DNA from: an uncultured Candidatus Saccharibacteria bacterium
GTDB lineage: Bacteria; Patescibacteriota; Minisyncoccia; Phycocordibacterales; UBA9973
Direction: 5' to 3'
DNA length: 64,000 bases
NCBI GenBank assembly: GCA_964532495.1
Contig: CAZHJZ010000002.1
Span: 79,501 to 143,500, forward strand
The notes under the pieces are model-generated. The model worked only from the letters and a program-made list of their open reading frames with translations. It ran no database searches and had not been told where the DNA came from. Numbering within the stretch: the first letter of the stretch is position 1; every line of letters starts with the position of its first letter. Both the position numbers and the translations under genes were made by a program. Below are positions 1 to 34,076 of this stretch, piece by piece.

Positions 1-183
1 GATTGCGCGGACTAAGTACTCGCGACCCCGCCTCGCCTGTCGCAGAGCGACATGGCTGCGGCTATCACAATCGCGGCTCCGAGCAAAGCAGTTTGCTCGG
101 AGCCGTCTCTGTGATCCCACGGAGAGTCGAACTCCGGTTAACGGATTGAAAACCCGCTGTCCTAACCACTAGACGATGGGACC
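1..183 (-). repeat. Inverted repeat copy A: tRNA-Glu plus ~110-nt conserved 3' trailer; reverse complement is ~99% identical to 33894-34076 and may extend past the window edge
   Basis: Direct comparison: rc(1-183) matches 33894-34076 with only 2 visible mismatches, one being the anticodon wobble base. The trailer contains a 13-bp stem ggctccgagcaaa/tttgctcggagcc. Confidence 0.8.
112..183 (-). tRNA. tRNA-Glu (anticodon TTC)
   Basis: rc gives GGTCCCATCGTCTAGTGGTTAGGACAGCGGGTTTTCAATCCGTTAACCGGAGTTCGACTCTCCGTGGGATCA. 7-bp acceptor stem, D arm with AGTGGTTAG, anticodon loop TTTTCAA, T-arm GGAGTTCGACTCTCC. Confidence 0.8.
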
Positions 184-246
184 ATTTGAACGCGAATACT
201 ATAGCAGAAAAGTTAGTTTTTTTCAAGTTTTAGCGTCTTCTGGTGT

Positions 247-1086
247 TTGACTATATCGTTTAAATTATATATAACAAGAAAAAACTATACTATGAAAACA
301 AACAACTTGGATGAATACGCTTTCCGTGAAATTTACTCTATTTTAGACGAGATTTGCATAACCGAACAAAATACAGATTTAGACGGCATGGCGAAATCAA
401 TCGGAACGACACCACTGCTTTTGCGCCTGACACTTGATGTTTGGGACACTATTCCCAAAACTCCTGGTGTAGGCACATACGAACAAGGCTTGGAAATATA
501 CAAAACATTAGCAGGAAATCAATATAGCGAAGAAAAAATCATATGCGTTTTAACAATTCTAAATATTGTTGAAAAAGCGGATGAAATTGAATCCATCTTC
601 AGCTTTCCTGAAATACGCGATGGGACGATCCTGCATGAAATTGTTTTAAAGAAGTTCTTGCGCTCAAGCAGCGATTTCTTAAAAATTTTGCGTCGGTACC
701 AAATCTACGTTTCAAGCAATACAAGCAAAGAGCATCACCCGATAACGCGCATCGGCCAGCTCTATAGAATTGCCCTGACAAATTTATTCTTGCACGATAT
801 GGATGGAACATTTAAAACGATTGTTTTTAACGCAAACAAGCTTCGCCAACAATTTGACGATGATGATGAGCCCTATATTGACGGTGATTTCGCAAAAGCA
901 ACCATACAAGATTTTTTTATTTCGAATAACGAAATCGAGGTGCTATCCGACTACATGGATACTATATGGCCAAAAAATATGAAGGACCTCGATATATTTG
1001 CTTATTATCTTAAAGTACAAGGAACTCGGCTTGAATTTTCTGCTTTAGACAAGGTAGCTGAAAAATTTAGCCGTATTACGATGTAG
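247..1086 (+). CDS. hypothetical protein (AT-rich; possible alternative start at 292, MKTNNL)
   Basis: Uninterrupted 279-aa ORF with no recognisable motifs. Confidence 0.45.
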   Translation: MTISFKLYITRKNYTMKTNNLDEYAFREIYSILDEICITEQNTDLDGMAKSIGTTPLLLRLTLDVWDTIPKTPGVGTYEQGLEIYKTLAGNQYSEEKIICVLTILNIVEKADEIESIFSFPEIRDGTILHEIVLKKFLRSSSDFLKILRRYQIYVSSNTSKEHHPITRIGQLYRIALTNLFLHDMDGTFKTIVFNANKLRQQFDDDDEPYIDGDFAKATIQDFFISNNEIEVLSDYMDTIWPKNMKDLDIFAYYLKVQGTRLEFSALDKVAEKFSRITM

Positions 1087-1194
1087 TAGATATTAGCATT
1101 AGTGATTAATATATAACCGCAGTTTCGATTACACGAAACTGCGGTTTTCTTTATATTAGTGCTGAAACATGATATTATGCCAACGTTTAATCAT

Positions 1195-1281
1195 GGAAGA
1201 GTGCGTGAGTGGTTGAAACGAACGGTTTCGAAAACCGTCATGGGGTCAAACCCATCGAGAGTTCGAATCTCTCCTCTTCCG
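1195..1281 (+). tRNA. tRNA-Ser (anticodon CGA), long variable arm
   Basis: Acceptor GGAAGAG/CTCTTCC, anticodon stem ACGGT/ACCGT with loop TTCGAAA, long variable arm catggggtcaaacccatc, T-arm GAGAGTTCGAATCTCTC. Confidence 0.8.
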
Positions 1282-1323
1282 CAAAAAAAATGCCGCCTGG
1301 GGTGACCCAGGAGGCGGTAACTA

Positions 1324-1956
1324 TTATCTATTTCCATGTAATTTAAGTGCCCGTATTTCGGGTATTATTTTTACTCTTTGTTTCTTAATTTTTGTTTTTT
1401 GTATATTCACGCGATCATCATCTAAAAAATGACGCATCCTACACTCAGGTCGTGTATAAATACAGTCATCTATAAATGCCTGATATGGGTATAAGTAAAT
1501 TGGCCAAATTGTAGTAGTCCACTCATATACCTTGCCTGGGAGATAGTGCAGGTTTTTGGGTAGAACTTCTTTATCATTTGCAAGTTTTACAATATCAACA
1601 TCCCATGATTCATATTCTGAAAACTGCTTTTCAAAAAAATCTATGAAGAATTGAAATCTATTACTTTCTACCATTACAATTGCACATATCCTTTTATCTT
1701 CTTCTTCAATTTCTAGTAAGGAAGAGAGATCCTCAAGAACACCTACACAAAGATCTTCTTCTGTAGGGCATTCGTCTAACGGGTAATCTTCAAGGTTAAA
1801 GCAAAGCGGCAGTGGGTAAAACGGAACATCAGTTAATTTTGCAGCCTTCTTTTGGCTTAAATAAAAGAATTCCTCTAATGGCGCCCGTGTGCCGAAATTT
1901 TCTATATACTGTTCATCCATTATCAGATGGGTAATTATCAAGGTATGTTTCTTCAT
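1324..1956 (-). CDS. hypothetical acidic protein
   Basis: 210-aa ORF, no conserved motif recognised. Confidence 0.45.
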   Translation of the reverse strand: MKKHTLIITHLIMDEQYIENFGTRAPLEEFFYLSQKKAAKLTDVPFYPLPLCFNLEDYPLDECPTEEDLCVGVLEDLSSLLEIEEEDKRICAIVMVESNRFQFFIDFFEKQFSEYESWDVDIVKLANDKEVLPKNLHYLPGKVYEWTTTIWPIYLYPYQAFIDDCIYTRPECRMRHFLDDDRVNIQKTKIKKQRVKIIPEIRALKLHGNR

Positions 1957-2048
1957 AAGTAACGCTTTTTCTTAACAATATACCTCAGCCAGCAAAACAC
2001 AAGCCTCTTGAAAAAAACCTTTAAATAGTGTATCTTGTTCTGGTATTT

Positions 2049-2121
2049 GCGCGGTTAGCTCAGTTGGTAGAGCGACCCCTTGACGTGGGGTAGGTCAGAG
2101 GTTCGACTCCTCTATCGCGCA
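2049..2121 (+). tRNA. tRNA-Val (anticodon GAC)
   Basis: GCGCGGTTAGCTCAGTTGGTAGAGCGACCCCTTGACGTGGGGTAGGTCAGAGGTTCGACTCCTCTATCGCGCA. Anticodon stem ACCCC/GGGGT with loop TTGACGT. Confidence 0.8.
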
Positions 2122-2189
2122 CTTTTATAAAAAAAAAATAGCCATGCTAATGAAAGCCCGGCCATTCAAATTTACATATAAATAATTAA

Positions 2190-2762
2190 CTAAAGGAAAA
2201 ATAACGGGCATACGCACACCCATGCAAAAGCGCAGAAATAACAAACTGTTGCCAGCTTCTCTCTCATTACTATTACATTTGTGGTAATTTTGGTTTCCCA
2301 CTCGGAACTAATTATTACCTGAAGGTAACTTCCAATCGAAGGATAAAATTTTAGATAATAGTCAATCCGGGACTCACCATTTCCACGTTTATTCGCTTCA
2401 TCAACCAAGCTCTGATAGTAAGTTTTTTTACTGGTATACTCCGAATTTTCAACCCTCTTCATAATTGCGTAGTAGTTTCTATAAGGGTATAAAGTATTTA
2501 TAACCTCACGGAAGATAGGTTTACCACTCTTTAGCCACTCTTTTTCAAATTGCTTCGCGTCAAAAAAGTACCTTGTTTTTGTTATCCTGAATTTCTCTGT
2601 AATGGTTTCTGTTGTTTCAGCGGGAAGCGCAAGGCCTAAGCCCACAAAAAGTAGAACCCCAAAGGCGGTAACCACCGGCATAGGATTCTTGATTTCAGAG
2701 TGATAGTAAACAGTAAAAGCGGCGGTTGTTGCAATAATGATTGCGATGATTATTTTTTTCAT
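2190..2762 (-). CDS. hypothetical exported/membrane protein (N-terminal signal/TM, C-terminal hydrophobic segment)
   Basis: N-terminus MKKIIIAIIIATTAAFTVYY; C-terminal Cys-rich hydrophobic tail. Confidence 0.45.
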   Translation of the reverse strand: MKKIIIAIIIATTAAFTVYYHSEIKNPMPVVTAFGVLLFVGLGLALPAETTETITEKFRITKTRYFFDAKQFEKEWLKSGKPIFREVINTLYPYRNYYAIMKRVENSEYTSKKTYYQSLVDEANKRGNGESRIDYYLKFYPSIGSYLQVIISSEWETKITTNVIVMREKLATVCYFCAFAWVCVCPLFFL

Positions 2763-2968
2763 ATTATGTTTGGTTTACCAAAAACGACGGAATCGACTTT
2801 GGTAAACCAAACACCTTTTTCAAAGAAACAAACATTGGTAGTACTATAGCATAAAATCATGATAAAGTCAAGTAAAATATACCTTACTAATTAAAGGCTA
2901 TTTACCCTATTCTTCTTATTTCCCTATCAATCCCCTTAAATCTATAAGTAAAATGTTATTATCAAACT

Positions 2969-3532
2969 ATGAAATCTGAAACAGGGCCTACTGCAATAAT
3001 TATTTACGGAGCAATTGCTGTCGGAAAACTAACAATTGGCACCCTACTTGCAAAGAAACTTCAATACAAGCTTACTCATAATCATCTTATTAATGACCTT
3101 GTATGGAGCATTTTTGAACGAGGCACCCCAGAGTCTTCACCACTGATCGAAAAGCTCCGGTATGATTTATACGAGAGAGCTATCAAAGCCGGACAGAGTA
3201 TCATCATTACTCATACATATGCACACGACTATGTTTCAAAGACTGGCTTGTCAGACCCGCAATACCTTATAACACTTGAGAAGAAGCTACAAAAAGCGGG
3301 GGCAAAAGTTTTATTTGTTCACTTAGTGACTGACAACAAGACATTGCTACAACGAGTTACAGGGGAATCTAGAAAAAAACACATGAAAGTTACAAGCAAA
3401 AAAACTCTCAAAGAAGTACTCGCGATTCGAGATTTCACCACATCTGCTCCTGTAAAAAATAATCTAGTAATCGACAATACAAATGAAGAGCCCGATAAAG
3501 TAGTTAAGATCATAATCAATCATCTTAAATAG
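2969..3532 (+). CDS. P-loop NTPase / predicted kinase (AAA_33-like)
   Basis: Walker A motif IYGAIAVGKLT near the N-terminus; ~187 aa, typical of small nucleotide/antibiotic kinase-like ATPases. Confidence 0.55.
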   Translation: MKSETGPTAIIIYGAIAVGKLTIGTLLAKKLQYKLTHNHLINDLVWSIFERGTPESSPLIEKLRYDLYERAIKAGQSIIITHTYAHDYVSKTGLSDPQYLITLEKKLQKAGAKVLFVHLVTDNKTLLQRVTGESRKKHMKVTSKKTLKEVLAIRDFTTSAPVKNNLVIDNTNEEPDKVVKIIINHLK

Positions 3533-3556
3533 ACTCAATATAATAGTAATTTTTTT

Positions 3557-9658: not shown

Positions 9659-11185
9659 ATGCCCAAAAAACAAACTACTGAACAGGAGAAGGTCGGCTTT
9701 CTGATCAAGAAGCTTCGCGAACAGCGAGGCATGACTCAGGCGGAATTCGCCAAGGCCCTCAATACCTCACAGAGCGCTGTCGCCCGCATGGAATCAGGCG
9801 GCCAGAACATGACTGTTGAACAGCTCGGCAAAATCAGCGAAGTGCTCGATCACAAGATCATGTCCCTCTCAGACGACTCAGTAGACTTCCAGATCGAAGG
9901 CGGGCGCAAGCTCTCCGGCTCGATCGAAACTAACTTTTCCAAAAACGGTGCAGTGGCGCTTATTCCTGCTGCCCTGCTCAACAAGGCAACTACTACATTA
10001 AATGGTATTCCAAAGATTGAAGAAGTCTTTCGCCAGATCGAACTGATGAAATCTATCGGCGTAGATATTCAATGGGTCAAAGAAAATACCCTCAAAATTA
10101 CTCCGCCGAAACAGTATGACTTCAAAAATATAGACGCAGATGCAGCTAGAAAAATTCGAGTCTCGCTGTATTTCTTTGGCGCACTCGGCAAACAGATTAA
10201 ATCATTTTCACTTCCCCATTCAGGTGGATGCAAAATGGGCAAACGAACTATCAAAGCGCATGAAGTTGGTTTTTCTGAAATGGGTCTCAAGATCAAGACA
10301 ACAGAAACTGAGTATCAGATCTCACATACCAAACTTACTGGACAGGAAATTACTATGTATGAGTCAGGCGATATGGCGACAGTAAACATTCTTTTGCTGG
10401 CTGCTCAGATTCCCGAAGAAACGATCATTCATTTTGCTTCGCCTAACTATATGGTGCAGGATGTCTGTTTCTTTTTGCAGAATCTCGGTGTCAGTATTTC
10501 CGGAATCGGAACAAGCACGCTTCGCATTCACGGCCTCGAGACCATCAGCCAGACTATTGAATACTCAAACAGCGAAGACCCGATTGAATCAATGATGTGG
10601 ATTGCTGCCGGCGTAATGACCAAATCAAAACTCACTATTACTCGCTGTCCGATTGATTTTCTGCGCCGAGAATTGCTGACATTGAAAGATATGGGGCTCA
10701 AATATACCCTTTCAAAAAAGTACCTTTCATATAATGGCAAAACTGACCTTGTTGATGTCACCGTACTTCCTTCAAGCCTGACTGCGGCTGAAGAAAAAAT
10801 CCATGCTGTTCCATTCCCAGGCATTAACAGCGATAACCTCCCTTTCTTTGTACCTATCGCTACTCAAGCCGAAGGAACTACACTCATCCACGACTGGATG
10901 TGGGAAAACCGCGCAATTTACTTTACAGAACTCAATCGTCTTGGCGCAAACATCATGCTTGCCGATCCGCATCGTGCATATGTGAATGGTCCGACAAAGC
11001 TAAAAGGCGCGCAGGTTGTTTGTCCTCCAGCGCTTCGCCCTGCGACGATTATTCTCATCGCAATGCTTGCGGCAGAAGGAACTTCGACGCTTCGAAATGT
11101 ATACTCTATCAAACGCGGCTATGCAGAGATTGCTGAACGATTGAATTCTATCGGCGCAAATATTAAAGTATTGCGGGGAATGTAA
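9659..11185 (+). CDS. murA: UDP-N-acetylglucosamine 1-carboxyvinyltransferase with N-terminal XRE-type HTH domain fusion
   Basis: N-terminal ~70 aa: LREQRGMTQAEFAKALNTSQSAVARMESG (HTH_XRE). Remainder: MurA/EPSP-synthase fold with GGRKLSGSIETNFSKNGAVALIPAALL and active-site GGCKMGKRT. Confidence 0.9.
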   Translation: MPKKQTTEQEKVGFLIKKLREQRGMTQAEFAKALNTSQSAVARMESGGQNMTVEQLGKISEVLDHKIMSLSDDSVDFQIEGGRKLSGSIETNFSKNGAVALIPAALLNKATTTLNGIPKIEEVFRQIELMKSIGVDIQWVKENTLKITPPKQYDFKNIDADAARKIRVSLYFFGALGKQIKSFSLPHSGGCKMGKRTIKAHEVGFSEMGLKIKTTETEYQISHTKLTGQEITMYESGDMATVNILLLAAQIPEETIIHFASPNYMVQDVCFFLQNLGVSISGIGTSTLRIHGLETISQTIEYSNSEDPIESMMWIAAGVMTKSKLTITRCPIDFLRRELLTLKDMGLKYTLSKKYLSYNGKTDLVDVTVLPSSLTAAEEKIHAVPFPGINSDNLPFFVPIATQAEGTTLIHDWMWENRAIYFTELNRLGANIMLADPHRAYVNGPTKLKGAQVVCPPALRPATIILIAMLAAEGTSTLRNVYSIKRGYAEIAERLNSIGANIKVLRGM

Positions 11186-18113: not shown

Positions 18114-18830
18114 TTATTCAATATCAGCGACAATCGCCATGTGGTCGCTCACGCCGCTTATCAAGCGGACATTCTTTGCGACATATGTGGGCGTAGTAAA
18201 AAGTCCATCCACCATGCGCTGCAATCCTGGTACTCGATGTAGTTCCTGATCCAAACTTGTTGTATATTTTTCCGGAATATTATCCTTATATCGTTCAGCC
18301 AATTTCGCAAATGCCGCTCTTCCTCGCGGTGCATTGAAATCTCCAGCGAGAATGAACTGCCCGATTTTATCAAGCGCAAGGAACATGCTGTCGATATCGC
18401 GTAATTGGTAGTCGGTCACTTCGCCGTTAGGTGTCCATGCCGCATGCGTCGTTGCAACTTTGAATTTCACATCATTGATTTCTATAACGCATGAGAGCAC
18501 TGCACACTGGACAAGAAGATGCGTATCATATCCCATGTGAGGATCCATGACGGTTACCTGTTCCTCCGAACCGGCATAATACTGCTTGAGAATATCTTTC
18601 ATTTCATATTTTGAAAAAATTCCCAGACCCATGAGTTTTCCCGCATGAGAAAATGTGTCATAGACCATTGGAACAAAATATCCCTTCATTCCGACTTCCA
18701 ACCCAAAGAATGTGAAATCTTCGAGCAAGATCTCCTGCACGCAGATAACATCGGGCTTCTCGATGCGCACAAACGGAATGACGCGATGAAGATGTTTGTT
18801 TCCTTCAATATTTACTGAGATGAGTTTCAT
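18114..18830 (-). CDS. endonuclease/exonuclease/phosphatase (EEP) family protein
   Basis: N-terminus KLISVNIEG...DVICVQE and C-terminal SDHMAIVADI, typical of the EEP fold. Confidence 0.7.
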   Translation of the reverse strand: MKLISVNIEGNKHLHRVIPFVRIEKPDVICVQEILLEDFTFFGLEVGMKGYFVPMVYDTFSHAGKLMGLGIFSKYEMKDILKQYYAGSEEQVTVMDPHMGYDTHLLVQCAVLSCVIEINDVKFKVATTHAAWTPNGEVTDYQLRDIDSMFLALDKIGQFILAGDFNAPRGRAAFAKLAERYKDNIPEKYTTSLDQELHRVPGLQRMVDGLFTTPTYVAKNVRLISGVSDHMAIVADIE

Positions 18831-18920
18831 ACTGCAGTAGAATATATTTTTTATGAAGATTTAGCAAGAATGGGTATTTAAATACCAATCATCAGTTGAC
18901 CCATTAGATATCAATAAAAC

Positions 18921-19280
18921 TCAAAAAACATTATTTTTCAACTCTTTATATAACTTATTATATTCTTTTTCGCCTTCTTTTGTAGCTAAAAACCAATACC
19001 ATGTGTGTGAGTCAATATTCTCTACTTTTAAGGAATTGATTACTTCTTTCCTGAGACGACTTTCGTCAAGTTGGACTTCTTGGTAACTTCGGTTGTTAAT
19101 AAATTTATATTCTGTTGGAAAAATTTTCTTTTCTTTTACCAAATCAACTACAACTTCAGCTATACGATTAGCTTCAGCCTCCGTTCTTTCTTGCTCATTA
19201 CCCCAAAACTCCCATGAACCATATTCACTTTCAGAGCATACTTCAAGTATATTGAATTGTATTTCTTTTTTATTGATCAT
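18921..19280 (-). CDS. hypothetical small protein, possible orphan immunity protein of the Rhs locus
   Basis: 119-aa ORF in a very AT-rich cassette downstream of the rhs gene; no motif recognised. Confidence 0.4.
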   Translation of the reverse strand: MINKKEIQFNILEVCSESEYGSWEFWGNEQERTEAEANRIAEVVVDLVKEKKIFPTEYKFINNRSYQEVQLDESRLRKEVINSLKVENIDSHTWYWFLATKEGEKEYNKLYKELKNNVF

Positions 19281-19523
19281 CGTAAGCTAAGAAGACTTTT
19301 TCGTCTTTCCAAATTTGAATGATATCAAGCGGATGAAAAACTACTTCGTCTCATGACTTTACAGCTTTGAGAAGTTTTTCTCAGTAAAGATCATCGTCCA
19401 AAATCCCTGTCCATTCAGCTGAATCTTGTTGCTTTGTAATTTTAACCCACTTTCTTTCAGCACCTCACCTTCCACTTCTACTAGAAAATGATTTTTACGA
19501 GCTCCTATGGAATTACTCAGTTT

Positions 19524-19835
19524 TTATAGCCAACCAAATTCTTTTAGAACATTTGTTAAATTATTAAACTTGAAACTCAAATACCAAAAATAATACTTAT
19601 CTTCACTTGATGTATCACGAGGTATGATACAAATACCGTGAGCAACAATTGGTAGATATTTTTTTATTTCTATTTTTTCGATTTGGTCATGGGTAAAACA
19701 ATATTTTTTTCTAAACAATTGATTGTTTAGAATTAGCTCATCTTGGCAAACTTCTAAAGTAACAAATGGCCAAGTAATCTGCCAAGATCCGATCCAAGCA
19801 CCGCCTCTGAATTTATTTTCTTTAGTATTTACCAT
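19524..19835 (-). CDS. putative cognate immunity protein of the Rhs C-terminal toxin
   Basis: 103-aa ORF beginning 4 nt after the rhs stop, same strand, AT-rich like the toxin tip. This gene order is the canonical polymorphic-toxin arrangement. Confidence 0.5.
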   Translation of the reverse strand: MVNTKENKFRGGAWIGSWQITWPFVTLEVCQDELILNNQLFRKKYCFTHDQIEKIEIKKYLPIVAHGICIIPRDTSSEDKYYFWYLSFKFNNLTNVLKEFGWL

Positions 19836-19838: not shown

Positions 19839-22800
19839 TTACTTTGTTAATTTATTAATTAAGTTTGCAACATTTGTAGCACCTTGATTTACGGCACTGG
19901 TTATAGAATTAACCGCATTTTTCATACCATTAATAATACCAGAAATATTACCCTGATATACAGGAGTTGTTTTATTAACACCTCCGCTAAAAGTTACAGG
20001 TATAGGCGTTGGACCCAATCTTGCTCCCATCCCGATACCAACTTCAGTTCCAGAATATTTTCCGCCAGAAAAATTAGTAGTAACATCTCCTCCAAGAAGG
20101 ACTTTACCTCCTAGGGAAGCATAGTTCTCGGTTCCCAATGTATCATTCCAAGTTTTTGCGTTTGAATAACCTGCTGATATTCCAATCGAAGCATCTGCAC
20201 CGGCTAATCCACCACCATGTAAAGACTTTGATATACCAAATGTTCCGTCAGAAGCAAAACCTATATTAAACGAACTACCAACTTCGCCACCCAAACCGAT
20301 GTTAGTTGTTAAACCAAGCTGAAAAGCAAATAGGCCGGTTGGATCGCTCATAGTTATCGGATTATTAAGACCATAACTATATGAATTTAAATTTTGTGGA
20401 TTAGATAAATATTCAAATAAAAATTGGTTATTGAACTGATCTTTTTTTTTATTTGAATTTCGCCAGTTTGTATCCCATTTTTTGTTGAAATCTTGAGAAC
20501 CAATAAGCAAGAACATTGGATCTTGAGAGATGAATTGACCTCTATCCCCCCCATAGTAGCGTGCATTCAGATAATTTAATCCTGTATCGGCATCATACTC
20601 CTGCCCAATAAATTGTTTTTGCTCATTGAATCCTGTCGCCTGTTCATTCAATCGCACTTCGCCGAATGGATAATAATCAAGCAGCTGATTTTTTGCGCCA
20701 GCTGCATCTGAAATGACATTTGATCCCAACACAGTGTCTGTATGCACATAGTATGGAGTAATAGTTGTCCCTACAGTTTCTATCGTTCCTACCAGCTGGT
20801 TGCCGACATATATTTGTTTAGTCTTTTTACTTCCAACTGTATTGTAATATTTGTTCGGATAATGCGTGGTATTTGTCTTGTCATTATAATAGACTCGATT
20901 GCCTGCGTGATCGTACAGATATGAAATAAATCTTGAGCCCTTCACTGTTTTTACAAGCTCATCTTTATAGTTCCAAGTATTAGTCAACTGACCGTTTGTC
21001 AGCATGTCACCATTTCTATTGTATGTAACGGAAGTACCATTGACGCTTGTTGCAGCATGGGGGTTAGCAAAGCTAGTACCAGTAGAACCCAAGTAAGAAT
21101 ACGAACCTACATCAGACTTGGAGAGAATATTCCCAAGCACATTGTAAGCATATGTTTGCGTATACGCGCTCTGCCCAGGCGCAACATTTGTAATAGTTGC
21201 CGATAAGAGACGATTTAGATCGTCGTATGTATAGTTGGCCATCTTTGCTCCATTGGTAGCTGAAGCATCAACTAATTGGGTAATATTGCCATCCACATCA
21301 TACGTATATGTCAGATCCTGCAATGTTATATTTGAAGAATTGAGAGTTTTTTTCGAATTCAATCGATACAGTTCCGCTGCATCATAAGTATTGGTGGTAG
21401 TAACTCCATTCGCGTACACCATTGTTGCAATCATATTTGTTGGAGAATAATCAATGTTTGAAACAATGTTTGCATACGCCGTTGCATTCTCCTTCGCTTC
21501 TGCTTTATCTACCAAGCCTGCGGTGTTGTATGTATATCGAACAGATGCTCCGTCTGGATAGATAATCACTGATTGATTTCCCTGACGGTCATACACATAC
21601 GAAGTGAAATAGTTGGAAGTACCAATCGTTCTGGATTCGGTTGCAATTGTACCGTTTTTATCGTAACCATACACAGTATTGACACCGTTTAGCATCGTTA
21701 CTGAACAGAGCTTTCCTTTCCCATTGGCGCAGGCGTCATATGCATAGGCAATCTCAGTCCCCGTTGCACCAGTGTAGTTTTCCTGGATCTGACGATTGAG
21801 GCCATCGTATTTGTAAGTTGTTTTTGCTTCAGGGCTGGTCAGTATTATTAGATTGCCCACAGTATCATACGCGTATTGCCATGTTCCAAACGATGTATCG
21901 CCTACTGCATGAAGATCTTGCGCTGTTAAGCGATTACCTCGGCCGTCATACGTGAAATCACGGATATTTCCGAGCGCATCAGTAAGTCGCACAAGCTGTC
22001 CTGCAACGTTCCAAAGATACTGCGTAGTGTATGTTGAACCAGCATTGATCTCATCTACTTGAATAAGTTTTCCATACGCATTGAGGAAATAGTTTTTTAC
22101 TTTTCCCATAGGGTCAGTTACTTTTGTTTTAAATCCGGCATATGTATTTGTCGTAGTGCCAATACTATTCTGTTCAGATGTGACTCTGCTGAGAGCATCA
22201 TATGAACGCACGGAGTATAATGCTGCGATAGTAATAGCAGGAGTACGCAAAGCGCCACCGCTTGAATACGGCAGTGATTGTTTCTGAATTCTGCCCGAAG
22301 AATCATACACAGTATCTGCGGTATTAAACATCCCAGCAGTTTCTGATTCCTTGCGTGTCTGAATGCTGCGGCCCAATCCATCAAAGTACTCGTATGCTTC
22401 AACGCCATTTGAGGCATCGAGATATTGTGTGGTTTGTTTTAGTACGTTGTTTGAAGTGTCAGTATATACATATGCTGTTTTTAGAACGGGAGAACTTCCG
22501 CCAGCAGGATCAGGAATGCTTTCCGTAAGCGGTCTGCCAAAACCATCATAACTGCTCATCCATGTATTCCCATTTGCATCGGTCATTGAACTAACCTTGC
22601 CTACTCCATAGTCATATACGTAGTTGGTCGGCTGCAAAATTGCGTTAGTGACTGTTGCGGGATACAAATTGTATGAATCATAAACATATGAAGTTGCATT
22701 ACCGAGAGGGTCTGTTTCAGATGTCACATTTCCAAATGTGTTGTAGGCCTTCTGTTTAGAAGCATATGTTGCTCCGCTTATCCATTGTTCTTGTTTTGTT

Positions 22801-25800
22801 TGATTGCCCTTAGTAACAGAATTAAATGGGCCATTATCGTAATAGAATTTTGATTCCGAAAGCTTTAGAGAAGACTGATCTTTGATAGAAATAGAAATTG
22901 GAACAATCACACCTGTAACGCCATTTCTTACATAGTCATAACTGGAATTTCGCCTATCTGTCCCTGTATCGGTAAACGTTCCGTCAGAAGCTGCAATTAC
23001 CGTTCCGAATTCCGTCTGTTCTGCCACAAATCCTGTAGAAGCATCGTACTTGTAACTTGTCGCCGTGTCCGTATGGGTAGGCAATCCGTCATATTGAAGA
23101 GTAATAGTTCGGTACAGATATACGAAATCAGCGGCTGCTGAAAGCGGTGCCGAATTCCATTGGCTGATCTCTGTCTGATACAAATTGTTAGCAAGGTTAT
23201 ATGTTTCTTTACGATATGGTTTCCCTATTTTGGATCGGCTATCAGCAAGCTCACCCAAAGCAGCATTAGTTGAGTTTCCTTGGTGATAATATGTTTTTAT
23301 TATTGCGTCAGGGCGCGTCTCTGTTACCACACCAAAGCCAGCAAACTTGCGATCGGATGGCGAAGCGTAGTAATAATATCCATCTGCATATGAGTATGAT
23401 GTTGTACTGCTGGAGCCATATCCATCATTTACTGTCACAGCTGCTACTGTGGTAACAACAAGCGGAAGTGAAGGGTTTAGTAAATTTCCTGATTGATCTT
23501 TGTACTGTGCAGAGCTTTTGTAGGTAACTCCATACGAGCCTCCGGCCGGAAGCGTAATCGTTTTTAAAAGATCATTAGGGCTTGTATTTGTATTTGGATA
23601 AATATTGTTATTCGCAACAAAATCCTGCGCTCCGTCGGCATTGATATCCATTAGTAAGTATGGATTCTGGCACAGACAGTTTACCGTTGCACTTATCGAT
23701 GATGTGAAACTTGGACTTGTGACATAGAGCGAAGCGAATCCTTTACCAGTGTTTGTGTATATTCTGTCGCCGATCACATAGATATCATCGAGGCCGTCAT
23801 TATTGAAATCGGCAATTTCAAATTTATTATATGAAGTTCCGAAATACGCATTCTGTAAAAAGTAAAAGTCTGGTGGCAATATATATGAATTATCCAATAC
23901 CCAATTTGTTCCGGTGTTAATATACACATTGTCCGTATAAACGTATTGGCAATTGCCGCAATTATTCAAGCTTCTGCTTGCTTGTATAAAGTCCGGAAGC
24001 TTATCACCATTGATATCCATCATGAAGTAATCAGATCTTCCAGAAAAAATTGGCGTGTACGCGAGAGGCACTGTTCCAGTTCCCGCGTGGCTTAACGTTG
24101 CATTGACATTGAAATTTGTTCCAGTGTTGAGAGATGTTGTTGTATTGTAATAAATCGGCAATCCGCCAGTAGAAGGATTGGTGTCTTGTAAATAGTCTAC
24201 CAACCCATCGCCGTTAAAGTCTTGGGTAAATAACGAGTACCATGGATTCGAAGTATATTTGGGGTATTGTGAGCTACTAGGTGTATACGGCACATTAGTC
24301 CAACCGGCTCCAGTGTTGATATTTTCATCAGGCATCACCGATGCGTTGTATGCGTACGGTGTTCGAAGTAGATCGGGCTTTAGGTCTCCGTTTAGGTCTA
24401 CAAGCCGAGTGCCGCCATCAAATTTACTGTTGCCGTCCGAGTAATTCATAATCCCCGCTGGAGGATTGAATGAAGCAGGACTTTGGGCAAACAGGCCTGT
24501 TGTAGGATTGAACAGCATCGTTTTTTTATCTGAAGTATATGTGTAGACAGTCCATTCATATGCCTTTAAAGCATCTGGATAGGCATCGCCGTTGATATCG
24601 CCAACAATCACTCCATTTTGCACGTCAGTTGGGAATAATCCTGGTACGGATTGGGCATTGGCGGTTTTGAATGTCTGATCAATATTGGAATTGTAGGCAA
24701 ATGCTTCAGCTGGCAAAGTGACTCCTGTTCCGTTTGCATCGTATCTCGTTTCAGTTATCGAAGAAAGCAAAGAACGCAGGCCGTTATTCCCTTGTGTATA
24801 CGAAAAAATGTATTTGCCTTTTAATATATTGTTTGCATAAATCCGAACATCGGAAATGATATAAGAAGTACGAACCAAGTATGCAGTAGCGTAGCTTTCG
24901 ATTACATCAGAGCGACTGATTCTGCTGAAAGTAATTTTATAAATGCCTGGCAATCCAGCAGCGTTTGTATACGTAATAGTATCCGGGTATATCTGCCCGT
25001 CATTTTTGTAATATGTATAGTCAATCGAATTCCCATTTGAATCCTGAGTTTTCTCAAGCATCCATTTTGAAACTTGCGCTGTATCGGCTGGATTGTCTTG
25101 GCGGGATTGTGCTGTTGTTCCATACGTATATGTAGTTCCGGCTTTATCCGTTACTGTCCATGATGTTCCTGAATATGAATACTTAAGCATCTCGCCACCA
25201 TCTGAGCGAGACATGTATGTTGACCCTGCGATATTTGCAAGCTCTCCTGAAACAGAAGAAGTAAACTCATTTTGTGAATACAATGTCTCGGTTCCTTTTT
25301 TGTTTACTCGTTCGATGTACGGAATAGTTATATTCCAACCGTACCCAACGAGCGAAGCATCCTTGCCGCTCTGTGAATTGTAATTTAAAGCAATACTGGG
25401 AGTCATCCCGTTTCTTCCTTGCGGCACAACTATGCTATGGCTGTATGAAAGTGCTCCAGTCGAAGCGTCAGTTTCGGGTTTTACTTGTTTTACTGGAGTA
25501 GGTGGATTGTCGCCATTTGAAGGATTTATCGCGAGCAAAGACTGCTGAACTTGCTGTTGTTGTACGTTTGCCAGTGGAGCAGCTTCCGGCCCCTCGGTGT
25601 GCTTTGGCTCTAAATCAGAAACTATATCTATATTTTTACTATCCAGGGTTACTATTTTTTTATCTGAAACTTCTGATGCCACTGTTTGGAGCGGTGGAGC
25701 AATAATCTGTTCTTTCGAAACTGATCCGCTGCTGCGGAGAGACTCAGCAGCCATTGGAACTTCTTGCGCATATACAGTGATGAGCGGGGCGCTCATCATG

Positions 25801-25868
25801 GTAGCGGCAAGCGAGAGTGATACGACCTTAAGCAGCGCCAAGCGCTCAAAACGTACTAATGTAATCAT
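19839..25868 (-). CDS. Rhs/YD-repeat polymorphic toxin (TcB/TcC-like: signal peptide, SpvB/FG-GAP-like N-terminal repeats, YD-repeat shell, DPTGL motif, Gly-rich C-terminal domain); the ORF is open to 25976
   Basis: Many YD repeats (YTYDVDGN, YLYDHAGNRVYY, YVYDRQGNQ, YKYDGLNR...). FG-GAP-like DxNGDGxxD repeats (DINGDAYPD, DLNGDLKPD, DFNGDGLVDY, DINGDKLPDF, FNNDGLDDIY). Rhs core end ...QDPM...SDPTGL followed by a 163-aa Gly/Ser/Thr/Asn-rich tail. Start at MITLVRF chosen because a promoter-like AT-rich segment and a terminator lie 5' of it. Confidence 0.9.
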   Translation of the reverse strand: MITLVRFERLALLKVVSLSLAATMMSAPLITVYAQEVPMAAESLRSSGSVSKEQIIAPPLQTVASEVSDKKIVTLDSKNIDIVSDLEPKHTEGPEAAPLANVQQQQVQQSLLAINPSNGDNPPTPVKQVKPETDASTGALSYSHSIVVPQGRNGMTPSIALNYNSQSGKDASLVGYGWNITIPYIERVNKKGTETLYSQNEFTSSVSGELANIAGSTYMSRSDGGEMLKYSYSGTSWTVTDKAGTTYTYGTTAQSRQDNPADTAQVSKWMLEKTQDSNGNSIDYTYYKNDGQIYPDTITYTNAAGLPGIYKITFSRISRSDVIESYATAYLVRTSYIISDVRIYANNILKGKYIFSYTQGNNGLRSLLSSITETRYDANGTGVTLPAEAFAYNSNIDQTFKTANAQSVPGLFPTDVQNGVIVGDINGDAYPDALKAYEWTVYTYTSDKKTMLFNPTTGLFAQSPASFNPPAGIMNYSDGNSKFDGGTRLVDLNGDLKPDLLRTPYAYNASVMPDENINTGAGWTNVPYTPSSSQYPKYTSNPWYSLFTQDFNGDGLVDYLQDTNPSTGGLPIYYNTTTSLNTGTNFNVNATLSHAGTGTVPLAYTPIFSGRSDYFMMDINGDKLPDFIQASRSLNNCGNCQYVYTDNVYINTGTNWVLDNSYILPPDFYFLQNAYFGTSYNKFEIADFNNDGLDDIYVIGDRIYTNTGKGFASLYVTSPSFTSSISATVNCLCQNPYLLMDINADGAQDFVANNNIYPNTNTSPNDLLKTITLPAGGSYGVTYKSSAQYKDQSGNLLNPSLPLVVTTVAAVTVNDGYGSSSTTSYSYADGYYYYASPSDRKFAGFGVVTETRPDAIIKTYYHQGNSTNAALGELADSRSKIGKPYRKETYNLANNLYQTEISQWNSAPLSAAADFVYLYRTITLQYDGLPTHTDTATSYKYDASTGFVAEQTEFGTVIAASDGTFTDTGTDRRNSSYDYVRNGVTGVIVPISISIKDQSSLKLSESKFYYDNGPFNSVTKGNQTKQEQWISGATYASKQKAYNTFGNVTSETDPLGNATSYVYDSYNLYPATVTNAILQPTNYVYDYGVGKVSSMTDANGNTWMSSYDGFGRPLTESIPDPAGGSSPVLKTAYVYTDTSNNVLKQTTQYLDASNGVEAYEYFDGLGRSIQTRKESETAGMFNTADTVYDSSGRIQKQSLPYSSGGALRTPAITIAALYSVRSYDALSRVTSEQNSIGTTTNTYAGFKTKVTDPMGKVKNYFLNAYGKLIQVDEINAGSTYTTQYLWNVAGQLVRLTDALGNIRDFTYDGRGNRLTAQDLHAVGDTSFGTWQYAYDTVGNLIILTSPEAKTTYKYDGLNRQIQENYTGATGTEIAYAYDACANGKGKLCSVTMLNGVNTVYGYDKNGTIATESRTIGTSNYFTSYVYDRQGNQSVIIYPDGASVRYTYNTAGLVDKAEAKENATAYANIVSNIDYSPTNMIATMVYANGVTTTNTYDAAELYRLNSKKTLNSSNITLQDLTYTYDVDGNITQLVDASATNGAKMANYTYDDLNRLLSATITNVAPGQSAYTQTYAYNVLGNILSKSDVGSYSYLGSTGTSFANPHAATSVNGTSVTYNRNGDMLTNGQLTNTWNYKDELVKTVKGSRFISYLYDHAGNRVYYNDKTNTTHYPNKYYNTVGSKKTKQIYVGNQLVGTIETVGTTITPYYVHTDTVLGSNVISDAAGAKNQLLDYYPFGEVRLNEQATGFNEQKQFIGQEYDADTGLNYLNARYYGGDRGQFISQDPMFLLIGSQDFNKKWDTNWRNSNKKKDQFNNQFLFEYLSNPQNLNSYSYGLNNPITMSDPTGLFAFQLGLTTNIGLGGEVGSSFNIGFASDGTFGISKSLHGGGLAGADASIGISAGYSNAKTWNDTLGTENYASLGGKVLLGGDVTTNFSGGKYSGTEVGIGMGARLGPTPIPVTFSGGVNKTTPVYQGNISGIINGMKNAVNSITSAVNQGATNVANLINKLTK

Positions 25869-25971
25869 ATGTATACACACACTACTAATAAACAAGGAAA
25901 GAAGCAATTCTAGTAATACGACATGAAAAAACGATAAAATATACATAAAATTCACTGAGACTATATATATA

Positions 25972-26003
25972 AACAAAAAAACGCCCGGACGGCGTTTTTT
26001 TTG
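25972..26003. terminator. intrinsic terminator downstream of tRNA-Ala (minus strand), AACGCC/GGCGTT stem with flanking A/T runs
   Basis: Hairpin and T8 run read directly from the sequence. Confidence 0.55.
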
Positions 26004-26010
26004 TTTATTG

Positions 26011-26083
26011 TGGACCCTATCGGATTCGAACCGATGACCTCCTCATTGCAAATGAGGCGCTCTACCAACTAAGCTAAGGGCCC
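26011..26083 (-). tRNA. tRNA-Ala (anticodon TGC)
   Basis: rc gives GGGCCCTTAGCTTAGTTGGTAGAGCGCCTCATTTGCAATGAGGAGGTCATCGGTTCGAATCCGATAGGGTCCA, including the Ala-identity G3:U70-type acceptor stem. Confidence 0.85.
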
Positions 26084-30549: not shown

Positions 30550-33156
30550 TTATTTACGAAGCACTTTTTTGAGATACTTTCCAGTATGGCTTTTCGGATT
30601 GTTGGCTACTTCTTCTGGGGTTCCAACGGCAACGATTTTTCCTCCGCCAACGCCGCCTTCTGGGCCGATGTCGATAAGATAGTCAGAACATTTAATGATA
30701 TCCATATTGTGTTCAATGAGGATGACAGTATTCCCTTTTGTGACCAAGAGCTGGAGCACCTCGAGAAGTTTCACGACATCATCATAGTGAAGTCCGACGG
30801 TTGGTTCATCGAGAAGATAAATAGTTTTTTCAACATGAGGTCGATAGAGTTCCGAACTGATCTTCACGCGCTGCGCTTCTCCACCGGAGAGTGTTGTTGC
30901 GCTCTGTCCAAGTTTTACATACGAAAGCCCTACTTCACCAAGCGTTTTAATACGATCGTGAATAGCGGGAACATCTTCAAAGAATGTCAGTCCTTCTTCC
31001 ACGGTCATTTCCAAAATATCGTAAATATTCTTTTTCTTATACTTGATTGCGAGGGTTTCCTTGTCAAAGCGCTTGCCTCCGCAGATATCACACGTCACAT
31101 ACACAGTCGGAAGGAAGTGCATTTCAACGGCAATTTCTCCATTACCTTCACAAGCTTCACAGCGTCCACCTTTCACATTGAAAGAGAAACGGTTCGACTT
31201 CCATCCGCGCAATCGAGCTTCTTCTGTTGCGGCAAACATATCGCGAATATGCGTCCATGCCCCAGTATAGGTAGCAATGTTTGATCGTGGTGTTCGGCCG
31301 ATCGGAGATTGATCGATCAAGATAGCGCGAGAAACATACTCCGCTCCTGTAAACGAAGCGACATTGTAACGGTTGTTTGAACGGTAGCGTCGATCGAGTC
31401 TCGCAGCCAAGTTCTTGTGCAAGATCTCATACATGAATGAGCTTTTACCCGAACCAGATACTCCAGTAATGGTAATCATGCGTCCAAGCGGAACTTCAAC
31501 ATTCATGTCTTTGATATTGAATACATTTCCATTCACTACTTTGAGTGAACCTTTGTCATTGCTTCGGCGCACATCTGGCACGGGGATCTTAATTTCTTCA
31601 CGAAGATATCCAAGCGTTCGTGAGCCGCTGTCATTTTTCTTTGCAGCAAGCAGATCATCCAAGAAACCTGAAACAATGACATTTCCGCCATGCACTCCGG
31701 CCTTTGGTCCAATATCGACGATATAGTCTGAAGCGTAAATAGTGTCTTCATCGTGTTCAACAACGAGGATTGTATTACCGAGATCGCGGAGGTTCAAGAG
31801 TGTTTCAATCAAGCGCTCATTGTCGCGCTGGTGCAAACCGATGGTTGGCTCATCAAGCACATACAAAGCGCCCACCAAACGCGAGCCGAGCTGTGAAGCA
31901 AGGCGGATACGCTGCGCTTCTCCTCCGGAGAGTGTGTTAGCACGGCGATCAAGCGTAAGGTAATCAAGTCCGACATCAAGCATGAACTGCAGTCGTGCCT
32001 CGATTTCTCGAACGACAGGAACTGAAATTTCTTTATCTTTCGGTGAAAGTTTCAAACCTTGCGTAAATGTCTGTGCGTCAAAGATAGACTGAGAAGCAAA
32101 TTTCACAATGTTGATTCGAGTCTTTGGATTGTCGCCGATGAATACGTTCAAGGCTTCTTTGCGCAATCGAGCGCCTCCGCAATCATCACATGGCTCGTCG
32201 CCAAAGAAATGCTTGGTTCCAAGACCGTTACAAGTAGGACATGCGCCATACGGTGAGTTGAAAGAGAACAATCGCGGTTCGATTTCTGGGAATGAGAATC
32301 CGTCGTTCGGACATGCGAACTTTGCAGAAAGCAGGAATTCTTCCTGGCCGTCAAACTGAACGATCACGAGCCCATCAGCTTCGAGCAATGCGCGCTCGAC
32401 TGCTTCTGAAAGTCGCAATCGGCTAGCATCTTTGTCTGACTTAAATTCATGCACGCCAAATTCGTCCACAAGCACTTCGATGTTGTGGTTCTTTGTCTTT
32501 GAGAGGACGATCTGCTCGCGAAGATTCTTCATCGCTCCATCAAGTCGAATATGCGAGAATCCCTTGCCGAGCAAATCATAAAGCATCTGATAGTGTTCCC
32601 CTTTTCGTCCGCGGACAAGAGGAGCATAAATATGCACTTTGGCATCATTCCATTCCACACCCATAACTGACTTTTTCTTCGAGCCTTCTTTCATGTAGCT
32701 TTGCATTTTCTCAATGACAAAGTTCACGATTTCTTCATTAGAAAGCTTTTTGATCTCAGTTCCGCATTCAGGACAGATAGGCTTTCCTACGCGCGCGTAA
32801 AACACACGAAGGTAGTCGTAGATTTCCGTTATTGTCGCAACAGTTGAACGAGGATTGTTTGAGCGAGACTTCTGGTCAATTGAAATTGCCGGAGACAAGC
32901 CAGTGATCTCGTCAACATCGGGTTTTGGCATTTGGTTAAGGAATTGTCGCGCGTAGGCTGAAAGCGATTCAACGTAGCGTCGCTGGCCTTCAGCAAAGAT
33001 CGTATCGAATGCGAGCGATGACTTTCCCGATCCAGACATACCAGTAATAACCACCATCTTGTTTCGTGGCATTTCTACATCGATATTTTTGAGGTTATGG
33101 GTTCGAGCGCCTTTGACGATGATCGAATCCTGCTGTTTTTGATCTTTATGTGCCAT
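30550..33156 (-). CDS. uvrA: excinuclease ABC subunit A (start at MAHKDQ; the ORF is open to 33375)
   Basis: Two ABC ATPase modules ([15 protein letters not shown]; GVSGSGKSS), zinc-finger CxxC pairs and ABC signature LSGGEAQR. Confidence 0.92.
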
Positions 33157-33258
33157 AGGAATAGTATAAATTAGGAGTACATAGACGAGAACTTCACCCG
33201 CCAAGCTCGCTTGGGGGTGTCTATCTCTACTCATATATAATACCACAGCCGTCAAATG

Positions 33259-33287
33259 TTGACAAAAGCTTTGCAGAAGCGCAAAAT
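33259..33287 (+). promoter_or_regulatory. candidate promoter TTGACA-N17-CAAAAT for the 33306 ORF (divergent from uvrA)
   Basis: Hexamers read directly from the sequence. Confidence 0.3.
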
Positions 33288-33305
33288 CAGAGAAAACAAC
33301 AACAT

Positions 33306-33764
33306 ATGAGCGAGATATTTGTAAACCCAGTGCAGATACACACCCTGCCAAAAATTGAGCAATTGCTTGAAGCAAATTTGCCCGAACTTAGAAACAATAT
33401 TTTAGAATTCTTTAAAAAAGAGATTACACAGTACAGCATACTAGGAGCCCCACTGGAACTTCTAGTTGAATCGGAACAAGAAAGCTTTGAAATCAGACCA
33501 GCACCAATGCACAGCCCTGAGATGAAAGTTACTGCCGAATCAAAAAAAGTTGAACTTATCGAAAATAAATTATTTTTCACCACTGACAAGCAAATATATC
33601 TTGAAGACGGTGACAGCATTTATTTCATTAGTTCCCAACTTATGATTGAAAAGAAGAAGAACAATGACATGAAAGTCGTTTACGTATACGAGCACCAACT
33701 CACCGAAATGGAAGCTCGCAATACTGCAAACGGCGAAAGCTATGTTAACGAACACAATCACTAG
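33306..33764 (+). CDS. hypothetical protein
   Basis: 152-aa ORF followed by a terminator hairpin at 33779-33812. Confidence 0.45.
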   Translation: MSEIFVNPVQIHTLPKIEQLLEANLPELRNNILEFFKKEITQYSILGAPLELLVESEQESFEIRPAPMHSPEMKVTAESKKVELIENKLFFTTDKQIYLEDGDSIYFISSQLMIEKKKNNDMKVVYVYEHQLTEMEARNTANGESYVNEHNH

Positions 33765-33778
33765 TCCTATACCTCCCC

Positions 33779-33812
33779 GCCCCATGACCAAAAGTCATCG
33801 GGGCATTTTTTA
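33779..33812 (+). terminator. intrinsic terminator (GCCCCATGAC/GTCATCGGGGC with one bulge, T-run)
   Basis: Stem-loop and T6 run read directly from the sequence. Confidence 0.55.
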
Positions 33813-33893
33813 TTGAAAAAAAACCTTTTTTCTGGTATCGTACACCCGTGCCATCAAAGGCCTGCCCTGCGAAGCTCGCCTCGAGCGAAGAAG

Positions 33894-33965
33894 GGTCCCA
33901 TCGTCTAGTGGTTAGGACAGCGGGTTCTCAATCCGTTAACCGGAGTTCGACTCTCCGTGGGATCA
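33894..33965 (+). tRNA. tRNA-Glu (anticodon CTC)
   Basis: Identical to the 112-183 copy except the anticodon loop is TTCTCAA (C34) instead of TTTTCAA. Confidence 0.8.
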
Positions 33966-34076
33966 CAGAGACGGCTCCGAGCAAACTGCTTTGCTCGGAG
34001 CCGCGATTGTGATAGCCGCAGCCATGTCGCTCTGCGACAGGCGAGGCGGGGTCGCGAGTACTTAGTCCGCACAATC
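33894..34076 (+). repeat. Inverted repeat copy B (tRNA-Glu + 110-nt structured 3' trailer)
   Basis: ~99% identical to rc(1-183). Confidence 0.8.

Follow-up and report, generated by a model that had tools for sequence, protein, structure and literature searches.

How did two tRNA genes for the same amino acid, 33.7 kb apart and facing opposite ways, come to share a structured trailer that is almost free of differences? The question is raised by a 64,000-nucleotide (nt) stretch from an uncultured Candidatus Saccharibacteria bacterium (assembly GCA_964532495.1, contig CAZHJZ010000002.1, positions 79,501 to 143,500), called the window here, in which a tRNA-Glu(UUC) gene and a tRNA-Glu(CUC) gene are each followed by the same GC-rich element (Table 1). 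An earlier note on this DNA saw in the arrangement a recent duplication or ongoing gene conversion, together with a new isoacceptor created by an anticodon point mutation. Comparison with relatives leads us, on a balance that tips only slightly, to another account: the tRNA pair is ancestral, and a structured spacer or 5' leader acting in cis arose behind the UUC gene and was recently copied behind the CUC gene.

The repeated unit and its extent

ARAGORN and Rfam confirmed the two isoacceptors that the earlier note had described as differing only at the wobble base. Both cloverleaf scores lie above the gathering score of 29 of the Rfam tRNA model, the anticodons at positions 34 to 36 (ttc and ctc) are those of Glu, and position 34 is the sole difference between the two genes (150 versus 33927, T/C). 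CCA is encoded in neither gene; in the UUC gene the discriminator A is followed by CAG. Ten long open reading frames (ORFs) use the codon GAA 272 times and GAG 79 times.

A repeat search of the window returned one long inverted repeat, with arms at 1-186 and 33891-34076 (186 nt, 98% complementary). Compared base by base, the 183 nt of tRNA and trailer hold two differences, the wobble base and one trailer base (6 versus 34071, G/A). The trailer copies are thus identical at 110 of 111 positions, in line with the ~99% given earlier, and the GC-rich trailer has the 13-bp hairpin described there, as a helix of 13 to 14 bp. Identity stops exactly at tRNA position 1, upstream of which the flanks are unrelated, and at the other end copy A is truncated by window position 1.

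The full extent of the repeat can be read from an independent assembly. Logan contigs of run SRR12404947 (k = 31) reproduce the window exactly, one of them covering 154-1228 (L001; contigs and loci used for comparison carry L numbers) and another starting at 34093 (L013). Logan graphs are built with k = 31, and all 31-mers in the contigs of an accession are distinct (PMC12424806), so contigs end 30 nt inside a shared segment; the end of L001 at 154 fits sharing up to tRNA position 1 (183), and the start of L013 at 34093 fits sharing up to 34122. We infer a full repeat of ~229 nt, made up of the 72-nt tRNA and an element of ~157 nt. Position 34122 is the base of the third predicted hairpin and also the point of divergence, with CACA/A in copy B and CACA/G at the other locus in the relatives L014 and L015. 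The downstream NT5C gene lies outside the repeat so delimited.

The same contig ends bear on a concern voiced in the earlier note, that the trailer identity is an assembly artefact, a collapsed or chimeric repeat at a contig end. Copy A does reach window position 1, possibly a contig end that a repeat produced, but the k = 31 assembly of SRR12404947 branches exactly at both repeat boundaries, each time with the correct unique flank (L001 and L013), and the homologous tRNA-element junction was assembled in another sample (L015). We find an artefact hardly credible.

Table 1. Features of the two tRNA-Glu loci in the window.
Feature	Position	Strand	Remarks
tRNA-Glu(UUC) gene	112..183	-	ARAGORN tRNA-Glu(ttc) at 111-183; Rfam RF00005, 60.1 bits
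tRNA-Glu(CUC) gene	33894..33965	+	ARAGORN tRNA-Glu(ctc) at 33894-33966; Rfam RF00005, 58.5 bits
Sigma-70-like promoter of tRNA-Glu(UUC)	198..226	-	TTGAAA-17-TATAGT with upstream TG; promoter scan, 10/12 matches
Sigma-70-like promoter of tRNA-Glu(CUC)	33813..33841	+	TTGAAA-17-TATCGT with upstream TG; promoter scan
GC-rich 5' leader of tRNA-Glu(CUC)	33842..33893	+	Outside the repeat
Element copy A	1..111	-	Hairpins 1 and 2 and 5' strand of hairpin 3, the rest cut by the window start; model R1, 103 bits
Element copy B	33966..34122	+	Complete, ~157 nt; fold z = -7.6; model R1, 200.8 bits
Hairpin 1	~33962-34013	+	Basal helix uses the last tRNA bases
Hairpin 2	~34015-34047	+	
Hairpin 3	~34050-34119	+	
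NT5C-family 5'(3')-deoxyribonucleotidase gene	34132..34731	+	Pfam PF06941; ATG 10 nt after the element

A three-hairpin RNA outside the known families

What is the trailer itself? It folds far better than expected from its composition (z = -7.6, with none of 200 shuffles as good), and its GC content of 58% stands against ~43% for the window and the genome. To find homologs, we anchored the search on the 250-aa GlmU-N-terminal-like nucleotidyltransferase encoded directly after tRNA-Glu(UUC) in relatives (query from L008). They turned up in two other relatives only, both times at the UUC locus and upstream of the glmU-like gene. L015 (Logan ERR14369865) has the tRNA-Glu 3' end, the element, the glmU-like gene, trxB and ftsZ in this order. 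L014 (Logan SRR24011137) has no upstream tRNA; a strong sigma-70-like promoter (TTGGAA-18-TATAAT with TG) ends 5 nt before the first base of the element, and transcription is predicted to start at the very position where, in the other genomes, processing of the tRNA 3' end would leave the start of the element. The essential UUC gene of L014 must therefore lie elsewhere in the genome. At L014:1-64, the rearrangement break point falls exactly on the tRNA/element junction. 

The three variants (window, L014 and L015) are 75 to 85% identical, and from them we built the covariance model R1. RNAalifold recovers three hairpins with 56 pairs, nine of which are compensatory in that both sides have changed. 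Pairing is possible in 96.4% of cells, compared with 30 to 42% in slid controls; the nine compensatory pairs compare with 3.4 ± 1.4 in shuffles (none of 500 reaches nine) and with none in slid controls. The compensatory substitutions that mark a structured non-coding RNA are thus present, on three sequences. Conserved G-U pairs on the sense strand (columns 7-46 and 93-154) would become A-C mismatches in the antisense strand, arguing for an RNA transcribed in the direction of the tRNA. All three variants have the same linker (GCGAUUGUGAUAG) between hairpins 1 and 2. The earlier suggestion that the trailer may be a functional RNA or a processing element holds as far as the RNA is concerned: it behaves like a functional structured RNA, whose three hairpins are kept through nine compensatory changes in two relatives.

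The search of Rfam that had been proposed for the trailer matched no family. Rfam 15, whose families include self-cleaving ribozymes, riboswitches, SRP RNA, 6S RNA and IS605-orfB/omega RNAs, gave only tRNAs in the window at gathering thresholds, and a permissive scan of 33800-34200 gave only chance matches below threshold (uup at 21.1 versus 36.8, mir-486, Cyano-2 and sau-59). A small ORF inside the element was ruled out, since no reading frame is kept across the three variants. No further copy was found in the 64 kb window (nhmmer, blastn, and R1 with filters off) or in 23 related loci (131 kb). Exact and degenerate patterns of hairpin 1 and of the conserved 5' block and junction had no match in genome, metagenome and viral contig collections, and blastn against phages and plasmids returned no match to the element. 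In the literature on RNA motifs of Saccharibacteria and Patescibacteria, we found no description of such a motif. The element is a lineage-restricted structured RNA, supported by covariation and unclassified by Rfam.

An old tRNA pair with a young trailer

Is the CUC gene a recent derivative of the UUC gene? Species-representative genomes were scanned with the 3' 24 nt of the tRNA, which gave 11 loci, mostly in metagenome-assembled genomes of Candidatus Saccharibacteria. Two relatives carry both genes with the exact window sequences, the wobble-only difference and the upstream flanks of the window: CAYVDC010000005.1 (L008 for UUC, L004 for CUC) and CAYNHU01 (L011 and L012, respectively). In CAYVDC010000005.1, the two genes lie on one contig ~30.5 kb apart, divergent as in the window and with the same neighbors, tRNA-Ser and tRNA-Val beside UUC and uvrA (86.6% nt identity) beside CUC. 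The conserved flanks include the promoters, that of the UUC gene in L008 and L011 and that of the CUC gene in L004 and L012. More widely, an identical UUC gene occupies the orthologous locus in L008, L011, L016 and L031, L004 and L012 share an identical CUC gene with the window, and the more distant L006, L009 and L023 have CUC genes as well. The trailer is absent from both pair-bearing relatives (L008/L004 and L011/L012). Because the same pair, flanks and divergent orientation occur in other species, comparison of these sequences indicates that the UUC/CUC pair and its inverted arrangement are ancestral in the clade, and that only the trailer copy is recent.

The claim of a new isoacceptor made by recent anticodon mutation therefore does not survive the orthologous, trailer-less CUC genes of L004 and L012. 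The wider claim of recent duplication or gene conversion divides: it fits the trailer, recently copied at 99% identity, and fails for the tRNA genes. Could the whole unit of tRNA and trailer nevertheless have been duplicated recently, and the CUC gene then made by a T-to-C change at position 34? The units are identical save for the wobble base and one trailer base, as such an event would leave them. Yet a CUC gene with the same promoter and leader lies beside uvrA in the trailer-less L004 and L012, the repeat begins exactly at tRNA position 1 with an ancestral flank upstream of the CUC gene, and the scenario needs the CUC gene to have been overwritten by UUC and then mutated back. We consider it very improbable. 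The pair resembles cases of anticodon shift or "tRNA gene recruitment," in which isoacceptors differ only at the anticodon, with the qualification that the difference here is old.

Other small structures are seen upstream of these tRNA genes. The CUC leader of the window, ~50 nt and GC-rich (cccgtgccatcaaaggcctgccctgcgaagctcgcctcgagcgaagaag), is identical in L004 over at least its last 40 nt, though the adjoining uvrA is only 86.6% identical; in L012 the leader is much shorter, ~10 nt. The window leader may be a second small structured insertion beside tRNA-Glu(CUC). In L016 (~3018-3050) and L017, the leader of tRNA-Glu(UUC) holds a small AT-rich hairpin insertion (ggtccttaatattaaggacc) that neither the window nor L008 has. 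Hairpins seem to be gained readily in the flanks of tRNA genes in this clade.

Gain at the UUC locus and transfer to the CUC locus

Empty sites are common at the UUC locus. In L008, L011, L016, L017, L025 to L030 and L031/32, nothing but 7 to 14 nt separates tRNA-Glu(UUC) from the ATG of the glmU-like gene. These genomes span a range of relatedness: the glmU-like proteins of L016 and L017 cluster at 90% with the proteins of L014 and L015, while those of L025 to L030 and of L031/32 are 74% and 65% identical, respectively. In L019, a more distant relative still, a plain terminator hairpin with UUUU is all that stands behind tRNA-Glu. Judged from these sequences, the empty UUC site is ancestral. 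The glmU-like genes of L014 and L015 are 90% identical in nucleotides versus ~80% to those of the empty relatives, which makes the two sister lineages, so that one ancestral gain suffices; the lineage of the window presumably shares this gain through the common ancestor.

Of the CUC loci compared, only that of the window is filled, those of L004 and L012 being empty. One trailer base separates the two window copies, and at this base copy A agrees with L015. For these reasons, the sequences mark the CUC-locus element as a recent, secondary copy from the UUC locus. L015 itself holds a single copy, its k = 31 contig running through the whole element into the tRNA; because the contig is unbroken, the other tRNA-Glu flank there should begin with CA plus a base other than G, as does the empty CUC site of L012 (GGGATCA/CAAATAAT).

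The junctions of copy B, GGGAT-CACA-GAGAC...GTGAC-CACA-AACATAC, suggest how the copying may have proceeded. The 3' half shared by the two tRNAs would have served as homology on the left and the CACA microhomology on the right, in a gene conversion, a template switch between the inverted tRNAs or an equivalent site-specific event, and the anticodon as well as the ancestral CUC promoter and leader would have been left untouched. A site-specific exchange within CACA would fit the junctions equally well. Beyond window position 1, copy A would continue as ...GTGACCACA/GAGAC..., followed after about 25 to 35 nt by the glmU-like gene, then trxB and ftsZ. Exchange between inverted, near-identical RNA or duplicate genes on one chromosome has parallels in the conversion of Salmonella tufA and tufB and in rrn inversions. 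Unlike in those cases, the tract here would have included ~157 nt that had no homology at the second locus and would have stopped in a microhomology of 4 nt, and no inversion is observed.

Is the element simply mobile DNA? The main alternative to a cis-acting leader is a non-autonomous element, resembling a miniature inverted-repeat transposable element or a miniature integrative element with att-like repeats, that was inserted at tRNA-Glu 3' ends (core GAyCA/CA) by a recombinase or transposase encoded elsewhere; the hairpins would then serve recombination or merely be tolerated. Both copies do sit at the exact same nucleotide behind the two tRNA-Glu genes, presence and absence vary among close relatives, the element is GC-rich (58%) in a ~43% genome, and the junctions would fit an attP x attB exchange within CACA. 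Direct repeats flank it as well, the 9-nt CACAGAGAC in L014 and L015 and only CACA at the CUC locus of the window, which fits target-site duplication or microhomology. Att-like similarity is found between GGGATCACAGAGACGG and GTGACCACAGAGACAG in L015 (13 of 16 positions) and in the shared CACA of copy B; the wider similarity between tRNA and hairpin 3 is at chance level, since 350 of 500 shuffles align as well, a result that also disposes of hairpin 3 as a decayed tRNA-Glu copy of the same length and with similar ends.

Against mobility, no integrase or transposase is found among the Pfam-scanned ORFs flanking either copy, and terminal inverted repeats are not evident: the element ends match at only 7 of 11 positions, and the repeat search and blastn-short report internal hairpin palindromes alone. 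There are no dispersed copies in the window or the 131 kb of related loci, and the pattern and blastn searches of genome, metagenome, viral, phage and plasmid sequences were empty. The distribution is also phylogenetically coherent, with one ancestral gain being enough, and the conserved G-U pairs favor a sense-strand RNA structure. The element resembles Correia elements of Neisseria, ERIC/IRU, Rickettsia RPE and yeast mitochondrial GC clusters in being a short, GC-rich, co-transcribed hairpin insertion with presence/absence polymorphism and short flanking direct repeats. Those families, by contrast, have tens to hundreds of dispersed copies, single imperfect palindromes, terminal inverted repeats and relaxed targets, and here there are two copies at tRNA-Glu 3' ends, with three hairpins. 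On this evidence, we regard a mobile element as unlikely.

A proposed leader between tRNA and mRNA

Another intriguing question is what the element does where it lies. Across the clade, the glmU-like ORF follows tRNA-Glu(UUC) so closely (L008:5883-5891, L011, L016:3124-3131, L025:1496-1500 and L031:1488-1500) that there is no room for a promoter or a Shine-Dalgarno sequence. A gap of 7 to 14 nt points to a conserved tRNA-mRNA co-transcript, in which the glmU-like mRNA would be nearly leaderless after tRNA processing. In the filled genomes the distance from element to ATG is 10 nt (window) or about 25 to 35 nt (L014 and L015). In the window as in L014 and L015, promoter and terminator scans found neither signal in the gap from the element to the ATG that follows it, and NT5C is for this reason probably co-transcribed with tRNA-Glu(CUC) and the element. 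A GC-rich hairpin running straight into a U-tract, the mark of an intrinsic terminator, was sought in 33966-34131 and in the matching parts of L014 and L015 and not found; GCGAUUGUGAU comes after hairpin 1 and ACAAACAUAC after hairpin 3, neither a U-tract. The element is not a terminator.

These features suggest that the element would form the 5' leader of the mRNA that follows it, transcribed from the promoter of the tRNA gene or, in the case of L014, from one of its own. In bacteria, RNase Z cleaves tRNA precursors that lack an encoded CCA behind the discriminator, hairpins at the 5' terminus guard mRNAs from 5'-end-dependent decay by RNase E or RNase J, and long perfect helices are substrates of RNase III. 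The 5' end of the element would accordingly be set by tRNA 3' processing after the discriminator or by a transcription start at the same nucleotides. In the filled genomes the mRNA would then begin with a very stable 22-bp hairpin, with two more behind it; the folded end would protect an otherwise near-leaderless, 5'-monophosphorylated mRNA, and the spacer would keep tRNA and mRNA apart. Fold predictions leave the start-codon region unpaired in either context. On the basis of this general knowledge of RNase Z cuts, 5' hairpin protection and RNase III substrates, the specific role of a cis-acting processing and stability spacer is a tentative proposal, plausible in our view but one that may well prove wrong.

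Known systems share parts of this design. In tRNA-mRNA co-transcription units, such as thrU-tyrU-glyT-thrT-tufB of Escherichia coli, a tRNA and the next ORF are likewise served by one promoter, and tRNA processing makes the 5' end of the mRNA. The 5'-terminal stem-loops that stabilize mRNAs, as in the ompA leader and the 5' hairpins of the Bacillus subtilis aprE and ermC type, likewise place a stable hairpin at the extreme 5' end, the classical shield against 5'-end-dependent decay; for the element we take this role over by analogy. What sets the present case apart from both is a conserved three-hairpin module of 157 nt between tRNA and ORF, found in few genomes and duplicated behind a second tRNA.

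Should the leader instead respond to a ligand or protein, in the manner of a riboswitch, it would control the glmU-like gene at the UUC locus and NT5C at the CUC locus. In every case the element is found immediately before an ORF of the same sense, in the position of a 5' untranslated region, and in L014 it is the entire such region behind its own promoter. The invariant linker and the covarying helices suit this idea, and so does the fact that both downstream genes act on nucleotides. No expression platform is visible, though: a terminator is lacking, and the predicted folds leave the start region free of pairs. Long perfect hairpins whose loops show little conservation are not typical of aptamers, no Rfam family matches, and the association with NT5C comes from very recent copying and need not be adaptive. 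We doubt strongly that the leader is of this kind.

A similarly slim prospect attaches to a trans-acting small RNA that is matured from the tRNA precursor, with the downstream ORF merely read through. Its model would be 3'ETS-leuZ of the E. coli glyW-cysT-leuZ operon, which is also carried in a tRNA 3' trailer, is functional and is released by tRNA maturation. A 5' end defined by tRNA processing, or in L014 by a promoter at the same nucleotide, and a stable three-hairpin module agree with such an RNA. The 3' side does not, since no terminator or other defined end follows hairpin 3; no conserved single-stranded seed is apparent beyond the inter-hairpin junction, and the distribution is very narrow. 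3'ETS-leuZ is a trans-acting sponge of ~50 nt that ends at the operon terminator, unlike the element, which has three times that length and, with no terminator, runs on into an ORF.

Several points weigh against a cis-acting leader that was gained once and then copied. We infer co-transcription, the processing sites and any stabilizing role from sequence and general principles. When the precursor is folded in silico, the last acceptor-stem bases are drawn into the basal helix of hairpin 1; this competition with the top of the stem could, in the model, hinder rather than help tRNA maturation, or could couple or delay it. The covariation is thin, as there are only three independent variants and two of the nine compensatory pairs amount to one adjacent dinucleotide swap, which makes it good but not conclusive; statistics of R-scape grade need more than three sequences. 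The primary sequence of the element changes at about the pace of synonymous sites: L014 and L015 are 75% identical in the element versus 78% at synonymous third positions of the neighboring gene, a divergence compatible with weak or no selection except on pairing. The 9-nt repeat that flanks the element in L014 and L015 is equally expected from transposition or site-specific integration. Finally, the last ~46 nt of copy A and its outer flank lie beyond the window and are placed solely by contig break points.

A further alternative goes beyond known systems, namely, an undescribed class of tRNA-linked RNA in Saccharibacteria. Such an RNA might direct the maturation of a co-transcript of CCA-less tRNA-Glu and mRNA, for example through a processing or self-cleaving motif at the repeated GAyCA/CAGAGAC end sites, or it might be a selfish element that moves among tRNA-Glu genes with the tRNA as its homing sequence. 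We think this reading decidedly unlikely.

Neighboring genes

Between tRNA-Glu(CUC) and murF lies a variable islet of ~2.9 kb (34132-36900, compared with L004:4470-7357). In the window it holds NT5C, a dCMP/cytidine deaminase and two unknown ORFs of 216 and 214 aa; four unrelated ORFs stand in its place in L004, and L023 has two small ORFs and NT5C. The closest NT5C homolog outside the source genome is 76% identical and labelled Taylorbacteria. We considered that the NT5C islet might have arrived together with the element and rejected this, as NT5C lies beside murF and downstream of tRNA-Glu(CUC) in the distant L023, which lacks the element, and the repeat ends before the gene.

On the other side of the pair, a 264-aa ORF with no Pfam match (292-1086, plus strand) lies between tRNA-Glu(UUC) and tRNA-Ser. 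The two tRNA genes are only ~90 to 125 nt apart in L008, L011, L016 and L025, which makes this ORF a lineage-specific insertion.

Three further coding regions stand out. A 2045-aa protein (19839-25976, minus strand) with SpvB, FG-GAP, DUF6443 and RHS-repeat domains, directly downstream of tRNA-Ala (26010-26083), resembles a polymorphic toxin, and the small ORFs that follow it at 18114-19835 could be immunity or orphan modules. At 9659-11185 (plus strand), an ORF for MurA (EPSP_synthase fold) carries an N-terminal HTH_3/XRE-type domain (residues 13 to 64), a fusion that would be unusual, provided that the upstream start codon is genuine. An 836-aa ORF (55038-57548, minus strand) contains diverged tandem repeats at 55913-56402, with a period of 75 nt (25 aa), and probably encodes a repeat-domain surface protein.

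Inversion potential and significance

The two tRNA-Glu genes point outward from ~30 to 34 kb of housekeeping genes. In the window, this block of 33.7 kb includes murB, murA, tsaD, a class I aminoacyl-tRNA synthetase gene, gdh, ddl, uvrC and uvrA as well as the RHS/SpvB protein. The earlier note had pointed out that recombination between the inverted copies could invert the block. Mechanistically this is possible, and the copying of the element has lengthened the inverted repeat from 72 to about 229 nt, roughly tripling it; the longest uninterrupted identity rises from 33 and 38 nt in the tRNAs alone to 143 nt (33928-34070) with the element, a much better substrate for such an event. If recombination took place within the element, the 33.7 kb would be turned around and the glmU-like gene and NT5C would trade tRNA promoters, with no gene broken. 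Nothing indicates that such an inversion has occurred: relatives are collinear with the window at either end, and the cumulative GC skew has no sign change or break at either repeat.

There is nothing unusual in the tRNA pair as such. The new feature is an RNA, supported by covariation and without an Rfam family, that lies between a tRNA and an mRNA; its narrow distribution limits its immediate significance. Its duplication shows that sequence next to a tRNA can be carried to a paralogous tRNA locus, and it leaves a potential inversion switch around essential genes. For this clade of uncultured epibionts with reduced genomes, the loci form a before-and-after series (empty, filled, promoter-driven and freshly duplicated), which can be used to ask how tRNA-mRNA co-transcripts mature and how leader RNAs arise and spread.

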